Counted from the first letter of the stretch, positions 27,856 to 40,489 are shown. The stretch is 64,000 bases of DNA from an uncultured Candidatus Rokubacteria bacterium (GCA_963771355.1 CAVYTA010000001.1:193376-257375), one strand, 5' to 3'. Translations and numbers: made by a program. The notes: a model not told the origin generated them from the sequence alone.

Positions 27856-30800
27856 TCAGGGTCGATTGCCCCACGCGCCCTCCCACACCTCGCCGCGCGC
27901 CGGCTCCCACGCGGTGTCCGACACTTCCCGGAAGGCGCTGTGGGCGGTGAGGGCTCCGAGCGCGCGGTAGGACTCGAACTGATCGTCGTCGAAGAACTGG
28001 TCCCCGGTGGTCTGGTGGGGGAAGTCCGGATTGTCCTGGCAGTAGTTCAAGATGGGGACGGACTCGTCACCGATGAGCGACGACTTGAGCACTACCAGGA
28101 AGCCGGTCTCCACCGGCCGCAGCTCCGCGCCGGTGTCCGGGTCCACCACGCGCGGGTACCTGATGATGCCCACCGTGTGGTGGGCCTTGGTGCGCCCGGT
28201 GGCGGAATCGAGGCGGAGCTTGTCGAGGTTGAGGTCCACCGAGATGTTCTCGTCGATGTAGATCTGGCGCAGGGCCTCCGTCAGCGAGCCGAAGGCGTGA
28301 CGAGGATCGGCCTCGGCGTCGCTGGCCACGATGATGGCGCAGCGCCGCTTGAGCAGCGGGCAGATGCCGAGATTGTCCCCGGTATGGCCGCCGTCGGAGA
28401 TGTTGATGAGGCGCCGGTTGGCGTCGGTGGAGCCCAGCATCTCGCGCAGGAGGTAGAGCGGCCAGAACACACCGGTCTCGGTGCGGTGGGCGCGCCGGCC
28501 GCCCCGGAAGCGGGGATTCTCCAGCCACTGGCCGAGCCGCACGTTGAGGAGGGTGAGCGCGAAGGACTGGGCGAGGAAGGTCTGGTGCCCCATCGCCGCC
28601 GAGGCCGCCGCCCCGGAGATGGTCATGACCCGCGCGAGCTTGGTTTCGCCGTTCCGGTAATGCGGCGTCTCCATGTAGCCCGTGGTCTCCGACCCGCAGT
28701 GCAGCCGCGAGAAGACGAAGTAGTCGCTCTTCCGGTCGCGGCGCACCATGTCGCGGCTGGCGGTGAGGTTCAGGGCGCCGACGACCAAGTGGAACGGTGC
28801 GGCGGTGACGCAGGCGTCCTCGGCGCCGCCGTCCGCCACCCCGTGGAGATGGGTGAGGTGGATCTCGGCGTCATCCCGCACCAGCACCTGATAGCCCTCG
28901 CGGCGCTCGTCCGCGCGCGAGACATAGGTCTGGAGATAGGTTTCCACCAGCCGGTCGCGGTAGAAGTAGTGGAGCGAGAGCTTGTTGAAATCGAGCGAAA
29001 CGCCGAGGGTGCCGAAGAGCGCGAGGGCCACCAGGCCCGCGGTGAAGGGCAGGACATAGGGCGGCACCGGAGCGCCGGGATCCAGCGCGATGAGGGCGGC
29101 GCACACCAGCACCACCCCCCCGAGGACGATCACCACCACGCACACCGCCAGCAGGGCATTGCGGATACGCGCGGAGAGCTTGGTGAAGCCCGCCAGGAGC
29201 GAGCCCCCGGGGGCCGGCGGCCCGCCGCCCGCCCGCGCGAGGAAGCGGGCGGCGGCCACGCTGACGAGCCAGCCGCCCAGGACACGCAGCGGCGAGCCGG
29301 CGGTGTGCACCGAATAGGCCAGCCAGGGCAGGCAGAGCACCACCACCGAGATCGCCGTCATGTAGTTGTAGATCCCCTTGGCGGCGGCGAATCGGGAGCG
29401 GTCGTTGCGCTCGAAGCGGTCGGACATGGACACGAAGGGATGGAGGAGGAGGGCCACCGCCTGGCCGCCCACGTAGACGCCGAGCGGCAGCATGAGATAG
29501 CCGAGCCGCGGGCCCGTGACCACGACGTAGTAGATGGTGATCGCCGCGGCGGTGACGAGGGTCACGATGGTGATGGCCCAGAGGGAGAAGTACTCGCGGC
29601 TCTCCTCCACGGACTGGCCCTCCACGTAGAAGAGCCGGTCGGGAAGGACATAGGGCACGCGGCCGGCGATGAAGAGGCTCACCATGGTGGCGGCGGCGCC
29701 GATGCCGATCGCCCACAGGAGCGGATTGCCGCGCACCTCGCCGGCCAGCGGCCAGTCCAGGAGGGACCACAAATAGTCGGGCGCGGTCAGGAGGCTGACT
29801 TCGAGGAGCTCGGGGCCCGCCATGAGGGTCACGATGCCCCAGTAGGTCCCCGCCACGCCGACCAGGAAGAGCGCGAACAGGAACAGGTGGTAGAAGAGGC
29901 CGCCGAGGACGTTGCCGACCGCACGCAGGACCTCTCGAGAGAGCAGACGGTGCCTCACGATGATGAAGTCGCCGTGGGTGCGGAGGTGGCGGATCTCGTC
30001 CTGGCCGTTGAACTCGCGCATCGTGGGCTGCTCGGCCACATCGGGGTTGAAGGGCAGGGTGGCCGCCTTGGTGCCGAAGTAGGGGGTCTCCCCGGAGTCG
30101 AAGGTGTAAGCCTCCTGCCCGGTGCGGGGCTTTCCGGCGGGCCAGCTCTTGCGGTGCGAGAGCAGCGAGCTGAGGCAGGCGCCGATGTACCCGCCGCCCG
30201 AGACGGTGCTCAGGTAGTCGAAGCGTCGGAGGATGTCGAGCTGGGCCAGCGCCTGCAGCACGCCGAGATTGAACGTGGCCGACCGGATCCCGCCCCCCGA
30301 CAGGGCGAGCCCGATGGGACGCGCGCTCTCGGCGGCGGTGGGGGAGGCCGTCACCCCCGCCAGCACCCGCCGTCGCGCGAGATACCGCCGCTCCCCCGCG
30401 AGCACGCCCAAGAAGTTGAGCACGTGAGGATCCACGCGTCGGATGCGGTGGGGCAGGCGGCCGACGGCCCACGCGATGGCGATCAGCGTCTCCGCGAGCA
30501 GGATGATCTTGCTGGTACCGGCGACGCCACCGATCGCGGCCAGCAGCACGGACGGCTGCTCGGGCTCGGCCAGCATGCCCAGGACGCAGAGATTCTCGGC
30601 GACCCCGAGCAGGGCGCCGGCGAGCGGGAAGCAGAGCAGGACGGGGGCGAAGGAGCGCCGCTCGTAGCGGAGGAACCACATGAGGAGCAGGCCGGTGCAG
30701 GTGAGGAAGACGATGTAGGCGCCGAGCAGCCACCAGTCCGCGCGTACCGCGGCGTGCGCGGCCGGGATGAGCCCCCGCGCGCGCCACTCTCCGAGCACCG

Positions 30801-31011
30801 CGTACGCGGTCGACTCGCGGACGCTCACCCCCAGCCACCAGGTGCGCGGAGCGCCCGCGGCGGCCAGCCGCGACTGCGCTTCCCAGACGCGCAGGAAGGT
30901 CCACACCACCGCCGCTCCCGACAGCGCCATCACCGGCAGTAGCAGCGCGAGTCGCCAACGGGTCCCTTCGCCGGGCGGCGGACTGGCTCGTTCCTCGGTG
31001 CTTGGCGCCAT
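27856..31011 (-). CDS. Patatin/cPLA2-like phospholipase with many transmembrane segments
   Basis: [27 protein letters not shown] (catalytic Ser), [12 protein letters not shown] (catalytic Asp), [20 protein letters not shown]. Start inferred at MAPSTEER. Confidence 0.85.
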
Positions 31012-31093
31012 GGCCCATCTAAAGTCGGGCAATCGGCAGCCGAACGCAATCCGTCTCGCATGGTAGGCTGGCCCCGAGACCAAGGAGGCTGAC

Positions 31094-31507
31094 ATGGCCA
31101 AGGCCAAGACCGAGCAGACGTTCGAGATTACCAAGAGCGAGGCGGAATGGCGTCAGCGGCTCACCCCGGAGCAGTACCGGGTGCTGCGCGAGCACGGCAC
31201 CGAGCGCGCGGGGTCCAGCCCGCTGGACAAGGAGCATGGCAAGGGCACCTTCCTCTGCGCGGGGTGCGAGCTGGCGCTCTTCTCGTCGGACACGAAGTTC
31301 GACAGCCGGACCGGGTGGCCGTCCTTCTACGCGCCGCTGGACAACGCGGTGGGCACCACGTCGGACCGGAGCTTCTTCATGACACGCACCGAGGTGCACT
31401 GCCGGCGCTGTGGCGGCCACCTGGGCCATGTCTTCGACGACGGTCCGCAGCCTACCGGCCTGCGCTACTGCATGAACGGCGCCGCGCTCAAGTTCGCCCA
31501 GGAGTGA
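31094..31507 (+). CDS. msrB: Peptide-methionine (R)-S-oxide reductase
   Basis: GTERA, CAGC, KFDSRTGWPSF, CRRCGGHLGHVFDDGP..TGLRYCMN. Confidence 0.97.
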   Translation: MAKAKTEQTFEITKSEAEWRQRLTPEQYRVLREHGTERAGSSPLDKEHGKGTFLCAGCELALFSSDTKFDSRTGWPSFYAPLDNAVGTTSDRSFFMTRTEVHCRRCGGHLGHVFDDGPQPTGLRYCMNGAALKFAQE

Positions 31508-36767: not shown

Positions 36768-37556
36768 GTGGCGGCGCCGCGCGAGTGGTTCCGGGGCTTC
36801 TTCGACGCCACCTACCTGGCGACGGACGGGCCCGCCATGCAGAAGCGCGCGCGGGCGGAGATCGACTTCGTGACCCGGGTGCTCGCGCTCCGGCCCGGCG
36901 CGCGTGTCCTCGACGTGCCCTGCGGCTTCGGGCGACATTCCAGCGAGCTTGCCCGGCGCGGCTACGCGGTGGTCGGCGTGGACCTCTCGCCCACCATGCT
37001 CCGTGCCGCCCGCCGAGCACATCGCGAAAACGCGCGGCTTCGCTTCGTCCGCGGCGACATGCGCCGAATCGCCTACCGCGCCGAGTTCGACGCCGTCGTC
37101 TGCCTCTTCACGAGCTTCGGCTACTTCAGCGAGCGGGAGAACGTCCACACCCTCGGGAAGATGGCGCGCGCGCTCGGGCCGGGTGGACGCATCCTCATCG
37201 ATCACCGCAATCCCGCATACGACGCGGAGCTCCCCACGCACTCGTGGCGCCAGCCCCGGCCCGGGCTCTACGTGCTGTGGACGCTCGAGATCGACCGGCG
37301 GACCAACGTGCACGAGGCCACGTGGCAGATCCTCCGGCGCGGCGACCGGCGCGTGATCCGGAAGGCGTTCCGCCTCCGCCTCTGGACCCTCGCCCAGTGG
37401 CGGCGGCGTCTGCGTGAGGCGGGGCTGCGCCTCGTCCGCGCCTACGGAGATTTCAAGGGACGGCCGTTCCGCCGCGCGTCGGGTCGCCTGCTCATCCTGG
37501 CCGAGCGGGTGACGGAGCGCCGGGGGCGGCGGGGGGCATCGCGGCCGCGGCCTTGA
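36768..37556 (+). CDS. Class I SAM-dependent methyltransferase
   Basis: VLDVPCGFGRH, GVDLS, GDMR, FTSFGYF. Confidence 0.9.
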   Translation: MAAPREWFRGFFDATYLATDGPAMQKRARAEIDFVTRVLALRPGARVLDVPCGFGRHSSELARRGYAVVGVDLSPTMLRAARRAHRENARLRFVRGDMRRIAYRAEFDAVVCLFTSFGYFSERENVHTLGKMARALGPGGRILIDHRNPAYDAELPTHSWRQPRPGLYVLWTLEIDRRTNVHEATWQILRRGDRRVIRKAFRLRLWTLAQWRRRLREAGLRLVRAYGDFKGRPFRRASGRLLILAERVTERRGRRGASRPRP

Positions 37557-39147
37557 GCACATCGTCCAGCGTGCCGGTGAAGTAGAACGCCTGCTCCGGC
37601 AGGGCGTCGACCTCTCCATCGAGAATGGCGCGGCACCCGCGAAGCGCCTCGGCGCGGGAGACATGGAGCCCCGGCCGCTTGGTGTAGGGCTCGGCCACGA
37701 AGAAGGGCTGGGCGAAGAACCGCCGAAGCTTGCGCGCCCGCGCCCGCATGGGCTCCTCGCCCTCCGGCACTGGCTGATCGGGCGGAAGATCGAGCAAGGC
37801 CAGCGCCTCGCGGGCGCGCGTCGCGATCTCGAGGTGCTCGCGCTCGACCAGCCGGGCGTCGAGGAGCCGTGAGCGCGAGCCGAGGGGATCCACGGTGGGG
37901 TAGATCCCGAGCTGCGCGAGCGCGGTGGAGAGACGGATCACCGAGTCCACGCCGCGGAGCGCCGAGATCTCCTCACTCGTCCACGGCCCCTCTTCCCGGA
38001 GGAAGTAGAAGGCCTGGAGGGGGCCCACGGTGCCCCCGCTATAGCCTTCCTTCTCCCAGACTTCCTCGAAGGATGTGGTCATGGGCCCGGGCACGAGCGC
38101 GAAGATCGACAGGCGATCATTCCCGGCGCCGAGCCGCCGCGCCAGCTCCTCCACCACCACCAGGGTCCCCGCGCGGAACTCGCCGGCCACCGCCACCGTG
38201 CCGCCCGCCACCAGCGGGCACATCACGTCCACGACCTTGATCCCGGTCTCGAGGAGCCGCGCTCCGCCGTCCCCATCGGGCATGGGGTCGGCCAGGAGCT
38301 GGACGATGCGCTCGAAGCCCACGCGGTTCAGCGGCGTCTGGACATGGCGCCCCTCGCTCAGCACGGACATGCCCGGCGCGAATCCTTCGGTTGGCGTGGT
38401 GGCCACTGCTCGCACGACTCCGTCCGGCAGGCGCTGGATCACCTGCACGGAGATGGCCCGCTGCCCGGCGTCGTCGCTCACCGTCAGCTCGGTCAGCACG
38501 TCGGGCAGCGCGGAGGGGTCGAAGCGCGCCTCGATGACACGCTCGCGCGCCCGCACGATGCGCCCGATGCGGGCGGCGAAGTCGTCGGGGAGGGGATGGG
38601 ATTCGAGCGTGTCCTTGACCATGGTGAGGTTCCTCCGCTTGAGCTGAGCGCGCGCCGCATGCAGGCGGTTGTTGACGGTCGAGACCGGCACCCCCAGAAA
38701 GGTCGCGATGTCCTGCTGCGAGCAGTCGTGCACGTAGAAGAGCGTGACGACCTCGCGGAGGGGCCGCGGCAGCCCGCCGACGGCGGCGAGCACGGCGCCG
38801 TACTGCTGCCGCCGCTCCATGCGGCGCTCGGGGCTCATTTCCCCGGAGAACATCCCGTCGGCCTCCATGAGGGGCCGGGAAACCGGTGGCGTTCGCCGGA
38901 GCTGGCGATGGGCCTGATGCCGCACGATGCCCCGGAGCCAGCCCGGGAAGGCGGCGGGGTCCTCCAGCGTGGGCAGGGAGAACCAGGCGGCGACGAAGGA
39001 TTCCTGCACGATGTCCTCGGCGTGCTGCAGGTCGCGCACGAAGGACAGCGCGTAGCCGAAGGCCATGTGCTGGAAGCGCCGGGTGAGCTCGGCAAACGCC
39101 TCCAGGTCGCCGTGCCTTGCCTGCCGGGTCAGCGCTTCGAGGTCCAT
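37492..39147 (-). CDS. ECF sigma70 factor fused to a degenerate F1-ATP-synthase beta-subunit-like domain
   Basis: aa 1-172: sigma2 (GDLEAFAEL...AEDIVQESF...AAFPGWL) and sigma4 (LREVVTLFY...SQQDIATFLGVPVSTVNNRLHAAR). aa ~194-535: AtpD-like motifs GRIV, LETGIKVVD, GIYPTVDPL, RARKLRRFFAQPFFVAE, LPEQAFY. SD GGAGG upstream. Confidence 0.92.
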   Translation of the reverse strand: MDLEALTRQARHGDLEAFAELTRRFQHMAFGYALSFVRDLQHAEDIVQESFVAAWFSLPTLEDPAAFPGWLRGIVRHQAHRQLRRTPPVSRPLMEADGMFSGEMSPERRMERRQQYGAVLAAVGGLPRPLREVVTLFYVHDCSQQDIATFLGVPVSTVNNRLHAARAQLKRRNLTMVKDTLESHPLPDDFAARIGRIVRARERVIEARFDPSALPDVLTELTVSDDAGQRAISVQVIQRLPDGVVRAVATTPTEGFAPGMSVLSEGRHVQTPLNRVGFERIVQLLADPMPDGDGGARLLETGIKVVDVMCPLVAGGTVAVAGEFRAGTLVVVEELARRLGAGNDRLSIFALVPGPMTTSFEEVWEKEGYSGGTVGPLQAFYFLREEGPWTSEEISALRGVDSVIRLSTALAQLGIYPTVDPLGSRSRLLDARLVEREHLEIATRAREALALLDLPPDQPVPEGEEPMRARARKLRRFFAQPFFVAEPYTKRPGLHVSRAEALRGCRAILDGEVDALPEQAFYFTGTLDDVLKAAAAMPPAAPGAPSPARPG

Positions 39148-39196
39148 CGCCCCTCCTTCACCCCATAGGTGCCAGAAAGGGAGGCCGAGCTTTGGC

Positions 39197-40489
39197 CTAT
39201 TTCGTCTCGCGCGTGACGCCCTCGCGAAGCAGGTCGGCCACCTCCCCGGCAGTGAAGCCCAGCTCGGCGAGGATGTCCCGGGTCTCGGTGCCGAAGGGGC
39301 GGGTGGCGGGGGAGTGCCGGAAGCCGGCGTCGTCCAGCTTGACCGGATTGGACACCACCCGCACCGGGCCGAGGGCCGGGTGGTCCAGATCGTGGAGCAT
39401 CTCGTTGGCGAGGACCTGCTCGTCGTCCATCAGCTCCACGGGCAGCCGCACCCCGGCGGCGGGGAGCCCATGCGCGTCGCAGGCCGCTTGCCACCCGGCC
39501 GTGGTCCGCGTCTTCATGAGCGCCTCCATGGCGGCCCCCAGCGCGTCGTAGTGCCGCTGCTGCTCGGCGGGGTCCGCGATGGGGCGCTCGTGGGCGAGGT
39601 CCTTCATGCCCGTCGCGCGCATGAAGGCCCGCTGGAGCCCCGCGCTCACGCAGGCGACCGCCAGCGCGGCGTCCTTCGTGGCGTAGGTGCGGTAGTACAC
39701 GCGCACCATGCCGGGCGTGCGGATATTGGGCAGGAGCTCGGCCTGCTCGGTGTACGGCGCGCCCGCGGCGCGCAGCTCGGCCAGGCGCTCGAGGAGATCG
39801 CGGCGCGGGGCGGCGTCCGTCCGCTCCACGCGCACCATGCCGTTGTTCTGCACCACCAGGGCGGCGGCGAGCAACGCCACGTCCACCTCGCCGCCCCGGC
39901 CGGTGGTCGCCCGACGATAGAGCGCGGATGCCACTCCGAAGGCCAGGCTCATCGCGCACATGTAGTCGGCGACGGGCGGATCGCCGGCGGCGGGATTGCC
40001 ATCCACGATGCGCCCGTTGGAGGCCATGAGCCCGCTCCGCGCCTGGACCACGAGGTCCATGCCCGCCAGCATGGCGTCGGGGCCGCGCTGGCCGAAGGCG
40101 GTGACATTGCCCACGATGAGCCGGGGGTAGCGCGGGGCCAGCGTGGCGTGGTCGAGCCCCAGCTCGCGGGCCAGCCCGGGCCGGAAATTGGTGAGCACCA
40201 CGTCCGCGCGCGCGAGGAGGGCCTCGATCACCCGCGAAGCCGAGGGGTGCTTGAGGTTGAGCGGCAGCGAGTGCTTCCCCCGGTTGCGCGAGAGGAAGTG
40301 GCGCGTCTCCCCCGGCGCGAGGGGGTTGAGCGTGCGCACCGGGTCGCCCTCCAGCGCCTCGATCTTGATGACGTGCGCCCCGCCGTCGGCGAGGAGCTGC
40401 GCGCAGTACGGCACCGCGATGAACTGGCCGAACTCAACGATTTCAATACCCTCGAAGGGCTGGGGGCGGGGACCTCGGATCTCTCCCAT
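39197..40489 (-). CDS. CaiB/BaiF family III CoA-transferase
   Basis: IAVPYCAQLLADGGAHVIKIE, NRGKHSL, NFRPG, DLVVQARSGLM. Confidence 0.92.
   Translation of the reverse strand: MGEIRGPRPQPFEGIEIVEFGQFIAVPYCAQLLADGGAHVIKIEALEGDPVRTLNPLAPGETRHFLSRNRGKHSLPLNLKHPSASRVIEALLARADVVLTNFRPGLARELGLDHATLAPRYPRLIVGNVTAFGQRGPDAMLAGMDLVVQARSGLMASNGRIVDGNPAAGDPPVADYMCAMSLAFGVASALYRRATTGRGGEVDVALLAAALVVQNNGMVRVERTDAAPRRDLLERLAELRAAGAPYTEQAELLPNIRTPGMVRVYYRTYATKDAALAVACVSAGLQRAFMRATGMKDLAHERPIADPAEQQRHYDALGAAMEALMKTRTTAGWQAACDAHGLPAAGVRLPVELMDDEQVLANEMLHDLDHPALGPVRVVSNPVKLDDAGFRHSPATRPFGTETRDILAELGFTAGEVADLLREGVTRETK

Follow-up and report, generated by a model that had tools for sequence, protein, structure and literature searches.

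Sigma factors of the extracytoplasmic function (ECF) type with C-terminal extensions are already known. ECF264, found in Firmicutes only, has no anti-sigma factor and carries an extension of about 350 amino acids (DUF1835) (Casas-Pastor et al. 2021, PMC7826278); the supplementary entry for the group gives its predicted promoter as -10 GGCACATT and -35 GTAACCTT (PMC7826278 supplement). ECF41 (SnoaL), ECF42 (TPR) and ECF238 (Cys-rich) combine sigma factor and regulator in one protein, with conformational or partner-driven control as described in section 3.5 of a 2022 review (PMC8999054). TipAL/TipAS is an autoregulated gene with two starts that gives a full-length activator and a free ligand-binding domain, in the account of PMC7762955. 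Here, these systems are compared with a gene found in a stretch of 64,000 nucleotides (the window) from an uncultured Candidatus Rokubacteria bacterium (GCA_963771355.1, CAVYTA010000001.1:193376-257375). Its product fuses an ECF sigma factor to a degenerate F1-ATP-synthase beta subunit, referred to as pseudo-beta below. The gene and its domains are as follows.

37492..39147, minus strand: fusion gene, ECF sigma factor plus pseudo-F1-beta, 551 amino acids; uninterrupted open reading frame (ORF) with NCBIfam, Pfam and PDB matches
38893..39084, minus strand: sigma2 domain, residues 22-85; PF04542, E 8e-12, above the Pfam cut-off
38638..38796, minus strand: sigma4 domain, residues 118-170; PF08281 at 118-169, E 1e-14, above the Pfam cut-off
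38566..38622, minus strand: junction module, residues 176-194 (M..L...LPDDFA.RIG); an altered form also occurs in sister sigma factors with other cargos
38344..38565, minus strand: N-terminal beta-barrel of F1-beta, residues 195-268; PDB and Pfam matches, predicted structure
37858..38259, minus strand: reduced nucleotide domain, residues 297-430, without the catalytic Glu and Arg, Walker B and the PSAVGY loop; Y416 (bovine beta Y345) is retained
38161..38184, minus strand: degenerate P-loop GEFRAGTL (GGAGVGKT in AtpD); Lys and Thr both lost in the window protein
37537..37857, minus strand: C-terminal helical domain, residues 431-537, without DELSEED; lid QPFFVAEPYT and Y488 (beta F424)

The frame runs without a stop over 551 codons, and its first 172 residues form the sigma part. 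Sigma2 and sigma4 are separated by a short linker with no sigma3, as in group 4 (ECF) sigma factors, and the ECF model TIGR02937 scores 70.9 bits against a cut-off of 42.9, so that ORF, Pfam and NCBIfam all confirm the single unbroken frame with a complete sigma2 and sigma4 described in the initial annotation. The C-terminal part matches AtpD profiles in part. PF00006 reaches 33.6 bits (Pfam cut-off 29.5), and the top 58 matches in a PDB sequence search are all F1-beta or beta-like chains (best E 5e-45), whereas PF02874 at residues 203-264 is weak and below its cut-off, and the atpD model TIGR01039 collects 170.6 bits over three stretches without reaching its cut-off of 462.85. The host's own AtpD scores 841 bits with the same model. 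All motifs quoted in that annotation are present.

A chimeric join near 38620 was considered and is ruled out by bridging contigs, homologue architecture and similar codon-position GC. The joint is spanned by contigs from two DNA studies (X1 contig 38475-39340 and X2 contig 37690-38743), each with one differing letter, and also by an RNA-library contig (38450-38669). GC at third codon positions is similar in the two halves (0.93 and 0.90), and codon-position GC is alike on either side of the joint. Pieces of the gene are present in the RNA runs only as contigs with an even, DNA-like depth, and these therefore do not demonstrate transcription. The host genome (8 contigs, 70% GC) has a single copy of the fusion and carries an ordinary atpF-H-A-G-D-C run on a separate contig, C3 (gene names from ORF starts and the atpD model).

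Like ECF264, the fusion has no anti-sigma factor, a long C-terminal extension and a -10 element, GGCAC(C/T)T, that is near GGCACATT: the GGCAC core is the same (29 of 29 sites), and the next base is C or T here and A in ECF264. The two differ in the -35 element (GTAACCTT against (C/T)AAAG) and in the extension, DUF1835 in one and F1-beta-derived in the other; the comparison covers promoter and extension. DUF1835 is not among the 11 Pfam families that match the fusion at E<=0.1. The fusion resembles ECF41, ECF42 and ECF238 in holding sigma factor and regulator in one protein, but its extension is a dead rotary-motor subunit and no partner gene is conserved with it. Section 3.5 of PMC8999054 does not give an internal start as a mechanism of ECF extensions and lists no F1-beta extension. 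TipAL/TipAS and AlbA/AlbAS are similar in circuit logic, with unrelated parts: as described, both are activators of the MerR type whose domains bind antibiotics and whose isoforms are demonstrated, whereas the fusion combines a sigma factor with a pseudo-ATPase and its isoform is predicted. Neither a MerR helix-turn-helix nor a TipAS domain was found on the fusion with Pfam.

The initial annotation knew of no described ECF group with an F1-beta extension, and a literature search, in which subscription journals were largely not covered, likewise returned no publication on such a fusion. The main text of the ECF reclassification contains no occurrence of ATP synthase or ATPase; in its supplement, the 357,196 characters searched hold two unrelated mentions of ATP synthase, and other tables of that supplement may bear on the fusion.

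The pseudo-beta shares with F1-beta the barrel, the P-loop fold, the adenosine pocket (Y416, Y488), the lid and the C-terminal helices, and it lacks the catalytic Glu and Arg, Walker B, the Walker A Lys-Thr, the PSAVGY loop, DELSEED and the atp-operon setting. It is about 30% identical to the host beta. Colinearity with AtpD across three domains, as first proposed, stands, but 124 of the 473 residues of the genome's own AtpD have no counterpart and about half of the nucleotide domain is missing. The missing stretches of AtpD are residues 109-129 in the arm, the catalytic segment GERTRE (189-220), residues 245-294 from Walker B through the PSAVGY loop, and the beginning of the DELSEED loop; none of 120 aligned family rows contains a DELSEED or PSAVGY motif.

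What has been kept was followed in a deep comparison of 72 representatives (family identity 27-54%), with bovine beta residue numbers assigned to the fusion by motif mapping. An aromatic residue stands at the beta-345 position in 71 of these and at the beta-424 position in 58, and P417, E334 and G327 are each present in all 72. Equivalents of F418, A421 and T425, which we take to lie beside the adenine base, are present in 61, 63 and 60 representatives. The P-loop retains its last Gly in 72, its upstream Gly in 62 and a Lys or Arg at the Walker A Lys position in 59; the position of the Mg-binding Thr is nearly always hydrophobic, and Lys or Arg followed by Ser or Thr is found in 2 of 120 rows. 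Within the window's lineage the Walker A Lys has become Thr in 96 of 121 close homologues, and Glu323 is present in 120 of them. According to the passage of PMC3603450 on yeast F1, Mg-free ADP stays between Y345 and F424 after T164, E189, R190 and D256 have moved off Mg, and the residues released in that state are the set that the pseudo-beta has lost. The pseudo-beta is, on its residues, a repurposed F1-beta stripped of catalysis, and the earlier proposal that a dead F1-beta serves as a built-in ECF regulator is supported.

The AlphaFold model of the full-length protein, built on a 120-row alignment, has a predicted local distance difference test (pLDDT) score of 89.2 and a predicted template-modelling (pTM) score of 0.78; residues 295-540, the reduced nucleotide and C-terminal part, reach pLDDT 95.6 and pTM 0.92 when modelled alone. 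Model residues 193-540 match F1-beta with Z 24.7 to 4xd7_D over 308 aligned positions, at a root-mean-square deviation (rmsd) of 10.4 A.

The sigma factor likely recognises a conserved bipartite motif in front of its own gene, an arrangement found with group 4 (ECF) sigma factors, and this gene is its only clear predicted target.

39190..39194, minus strand: predicted -35, CAAAG; all 29 unique upstream sites have A[AG]AG at a constant spacing of 16 nt
39167..39173, minus strand: predicted -10, GGCACCT; all 29 unique sites share GGCAC
39152..39158, minus strand: Shine-Dalgarno (SD) sequence AAGGAGG of the full-length protein, from sequence

The motif A[AG]AG-N16-GGCAC(C/T)T lies upstream of 36 of 38 loci that have an N-terminal match, and the other two have no usable start. 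The 29 unique sites all have a spacer of 16 nt; sites from related genomes are not independent in these counts. Four of four additional loci also have the motif, one of them a relative at 40% identity. In the window's genome the best site is the gene's own, at 28.8 bits, and the runner-up has 18.8. Across 19 carrier genomes there are 75 exact matches, of which 18 lie directly before the fusion gene. A wider regulon was considered and rejected, since the remaining exact matches are not in excess over non-carriers or the reversed control: 57 in 19 carriers (0.57/Mb) against 41 in 20 non-carriers (0.48/Mb), with 144 for the reversed motif. Beside these counts, one genome with two family copies has a second exact motif about 860 bp upstream of the gene's own (G051:C157:18031-18056, locus L030), and a terminator-like hairpin on the plus strand of the window (39182-39198) overlaps the predicted -35.

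A second translation start within the gene probably yields a free pseudo-beta, as suggested by the sequence around codon 176.

38632..38636, minus strand: internal SD GGAGG in the rare Arg codons CGG-AGG; codon and SD statistics
38620..38622, minus strand: in-frame ATG, Met176; predicted second start of a 376-residue free pseudo-beta; Met conservation

Codons 170-176 read AAG CGG AGG AAC CTC ACC ATG. Of 121 close homologues, 120 have Met at position 176 or 177, and the remaining one has GTG in the matching locus. A Met falls within residues 171-180 in 64 of 72 deep rows, compared with 13% of other 10-residue windows, and Met176 is replaced by Leu in 2 of 72 rows, against 23 for Met28 and 38 for Met309. 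AGG and AGA make up 28 of 46 Arg codons just upstream of Met176 and 60 of 1454 elsewhere (30 unique genes); CGGAGG encodes 49 of 4883 Arg-Arg pairs (1%) genome-wide. An SD-like 5-mer, defined by the genome's own anti-SD, precedes the Met in 21 of 32 unique loci, as against 581 of 15104 internal ATGs (3.8%) genome-wide. Four proteins start at Met176 (P0127, P0131, P0218, P0220); they are known from protein records and may be contig-cut. For this second-protein step, a somewhat unlikely alternative is that the fusion is the sole product and the internal SD and ATG are a fossil of the old fusion event or a ribosome pause at a domain boundary. The 9-nt spacing is long, the SDs of some relatives are weak (-3.8 to -6.8 kcal/mol), and fusion of an ECF with a downstream anti-sigma gene is one origin proposed for such extensions in PMC8999054. 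No naturally split sigma and pseudo-beta was seen among the best 120 short proteins, where ends are scattered or frameshifted and stops do not pile up at the joint. A fossil, however, would be expected to decay towards CGC or CGG in a 70% GC genome, and a pause site would not require the Met, yet the Met is retained or swapped for GTG. Several loci whose Met lies one codon later also show SD-like pairing extended one codon later, and in a distant relative that lacks the junction helix, AAGGAG has been kept 6 nt ahead of an ATG where the barrel begins; both argue against the fossil and the pause.

The architecture is shared by a family. A search of other genomes, as had been suggested, found sigma2, sigma4 and PF00006 together in 119 of the best 120 homologues listed (identity 61-99%, the window's own cluster included). 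Methylomirabilota/Rokubacteria account for the few named homologues and for most named records. In a sample of the phylum, matches occur in 19 of 151 genomes, all within the window's family, and in 18 of 93 genomes of that family without G000. A profile search gave 150 clusters at 50% identity: 76 have the sigma, barrel, P-loop and C-terminal parts, 30 have sigma, P-loop and C-terminal parts with the barrel undetected, and the remainder are fragments. Ankyrin repeats follow the sigma part in 13 of 14 long or barrel-less proteins scanned (P0200 and following). An ESM Atlas cluster has 139 members (score 0.98), and Thermomicrobiota is the commonest phylum among the 32 that have a record. One genome labelled Xanthobacteraceae carries the fusion, as do 2 of 300 relatives, both frame-broken; in the alphaproteobacterial class sample the centre genome is the sole carrier of 301, and its family sample has 3 of 301, two frame-broken. 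A metagenome scan with one generic ECF pattern showed 3 beta fusions among the 80 loci listed, and none of 718 matching plasmid records covers 80% of the fusion protein. Relatives L017, L001/L022, L165 and L166 are frame-broken in their assemblies, for which error and decay are both possible.

In a tree of 86 sequences and 228 columns (P0221, P0267, E. coli alpha, L044 and L046 excluded), the five true betas form one clade (0.998) separate from the long-branched pseudo-betas. With the tree rooted on one alpha, however, the true betas nest inside the pseudo-betas, so that the tree fixes neither a single origin nor a donor.

Related sigma factors have a similar junction after sigma4 and different cargos: a ClpX C4 zinc finger (L052), GNAT (L055), ankyrin alone (L056, L061), a short Cys-rich tail (L057, L059) and, read by eye, Kelch-like repeats (L064). 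In four same-genus loci (L006:5272-5919, L016, L023:939-1457, L037) the CoA-transferase and the promoter are separated by a free ankyrin-repeat gene, which is absent from the corresponding place in the window. No conserved partner gene was found family-wide, with no neighbour common to more than 7 of 32 distinct loci.

Five elements are established: the fusion, the loss of the Mg-binding and catalytic set, the retention of the adenosine pocket, and the conservation of the promoter-like motif and of the internal SD and ATG. The reading that we favour, though we give it a little less than an even chance, is a one-gene, self-activating adenine-nucleotide sensor that consists of the sigma factor with its catalytically dead beta, plus free pseudo-beta. 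The pseudo-beta would work outside F1, as a monomer or small oligomer that clasps the sigma domains directly, and would toggle the sigma factor by binding adenine nucleotide without hydrolysis. Ligand in the cleft between P-loop and lid would shift the C-terminal domain, like the open/closed change of beta, and this shift would release sigma2 and sigma4 to RNA polymerase. In the window's lineage, which has lost the P-loop Lys and has Glu fixed at 323, ADP or AMP (low-phosphate) would be a more likely ligand than Mg-ATP. The freed sigma factor would transcribe its own gene, and since its own promoter is the only clear target, the output would be more fusion and more free pseudo-beta; the latter might mop up ligand or bind sigma in trans and so end the response (compare TipAS/TipAL). 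Among the inputs put forward in the initial annotation, nucleotide level best matches the conservation, the adenosine pocket being kept. The full-length pTM of 0.78 exceeds a rough estimated ceiling of 0.59-0.68 for undocked sigma domains, which would fit sigma docking on the pseudo-beta.

Several points weigh against this sensor. With its P-loop Lys lost, the window protein may not bind phosphate at all, and the pocket residues may have been retained for fold stability. The pTM comparison is indirect. The promoter motif was derived from the same upstream regions in which it was counted, the counts cover exact matches and leave room for degenerate targets, and three of the non-own sites were inspected, all in the window's genome. 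The CoA-transferase gene has the same orientation and lies 49 bp upstream, with no terminator-like site found between on that strand; read-through from it may supplement or substitute the own promoter. The internal SD is 9 nt from its ATG and weaker than the main SD (medians of -5.6 and -9.4 kcal/mol), and the strict SD-like 5-mer is missing from 11 of 32 loci.

Two further explanations deserve consideration, both of them doubtful. The pseudo-beta could be a decoy and sponge that confers resistance: it would mimic the target of an outside ATP-synthase inhibitor (an adenosine-like antibiotic or an attacking protein), whose binding induces the gene, and free pseudo-beta would then sequester the inhibitor. 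With its own gene as only clear target and probably a free ligand-binding isoform, the fusion follows the logic of TipA as set out in PMC7762955, and reportedly that of AlbA; the patchy occurrence (18 of the 93 genomes in the window's family) and the sister sigma with a ClpX-type zinc finger, another housekeeping-machine piece, also fit. A decoy should nevertheless track the host beta, to which the pseudo-beta is about 30% identical, and the best-known inhibitor site on beta alone is not retained. The hot spots for aurovertin given in PMC9615146 (R412, Y458, Q411) are found in 26, 11 and 18 of 72 deep rows, and a decoy for aurovertin itself was rejected on this poor conservation.

The pseudo-beta could otherwise be a ligand-free scaffold, a stable fused anti-sigma from which proteolysis or a protein partner such as an ankyrin protein would free the sigma factor, and we regard this as improbable. 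Such release has been proposed for ECF42 and IutY, and these mechanisms are described for other extensions in section 3.5 of PMC8999054. The loss of the P-loop Lys in the window's lineage, the ankyrin repeats fused in related forms, the free ankyrin gene just upstream in those four same-genus loci, and a junction module common to sister sigmas regardless of cargo are consistent with it. The scaffold leaves unexplained, however, why the adenosine pocket and the P-loop glycine and basic residue stand out at such low family identity, and neither the ankyrin gene's absence from this place in the window nor the lack of a widely shared neighbour fits a partner protein.

Sensing of F1 assembly, another input suggested at first, whereby the pseudo-beta would bind alpha or gamma in free form and tie transcription to the assembly of ATP synthase, is very unlikely: all three beta domains are represented, barrel included, R427 (beta R356) is retained in 116 of 121 close homologues and the host has a normal F1 operon, but R427 is found in only 41 of 72 deep rows, the DELSEED and PSAVGY motifs and much of the nucleotide domain are gone, the deletions include the arm (described in section D of PMC5097049), the rmsd to F1-beta chains is about 10 A, the barrel is undetected in 30 of 150 representatives with ankyrin repeats in its place in related forms, and none of the 17 best promoter-motif sites in the genome lies on the atp contig C3.

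Around the fusion gene, a CoA-transferase III gene lies upstream and a convergent methyltransferase gene downstream. The fusion's 3' end overlaps the methyltransferase by 65 bp (37492-37556), and this neighbour is also found in same-genus relatives. No anti-sigma or atp gene was detected with Pfam in the six neighbouring ORFs scanned, in agreement with the initial annotation. Elsewhere in the window, a 1092-aa ORF (27856-31134, minus strand) has membrane segments and looks patatin-like from GxSxG-type motifs read by eye, GC drops to 0.58 at 1001-2000 compared with about 0.70 elsewhere, and an Rfam scan gave no matches.

If the nucleotide-sensor reading is true, it would represent a rare recycling of a core rotary ATP synthase subunit as a signalling pseudo-enzyme, and a new route by which a nucleotide signal could reach a sigma factor with no anti-sigma gene involved. 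With promoter, second start and pocket residues defined, a single gene suffices for testing the system in a laboratory strain. The pseudo-beta is also a natural minimal beta of about 250 residues (P-loop, pocket, lid) that separates the open/closed hinge of beta from catalysis. Family fragments named 'F0F1-type ATP synthase beta subunit' could contaminate atpD marker sets; P0273, P0275, P0278, P0411 and P0416 are family fragments labelled ATP synthase beta subunit by their source. A broader view, possible but less than likely, is that the sigma factor reads adenylate state through a de-catalysed ATP-synthase subunit in a one-gene circuit whose second product, started internally, serves as its own nucleotide sponge or anti-sigma, and that this fusion is among the cargos of a wider sigma platform, at whose junction housekeeping pieces (F1-beta, ClpX zinc finger) may be accepted as sensors or baits.

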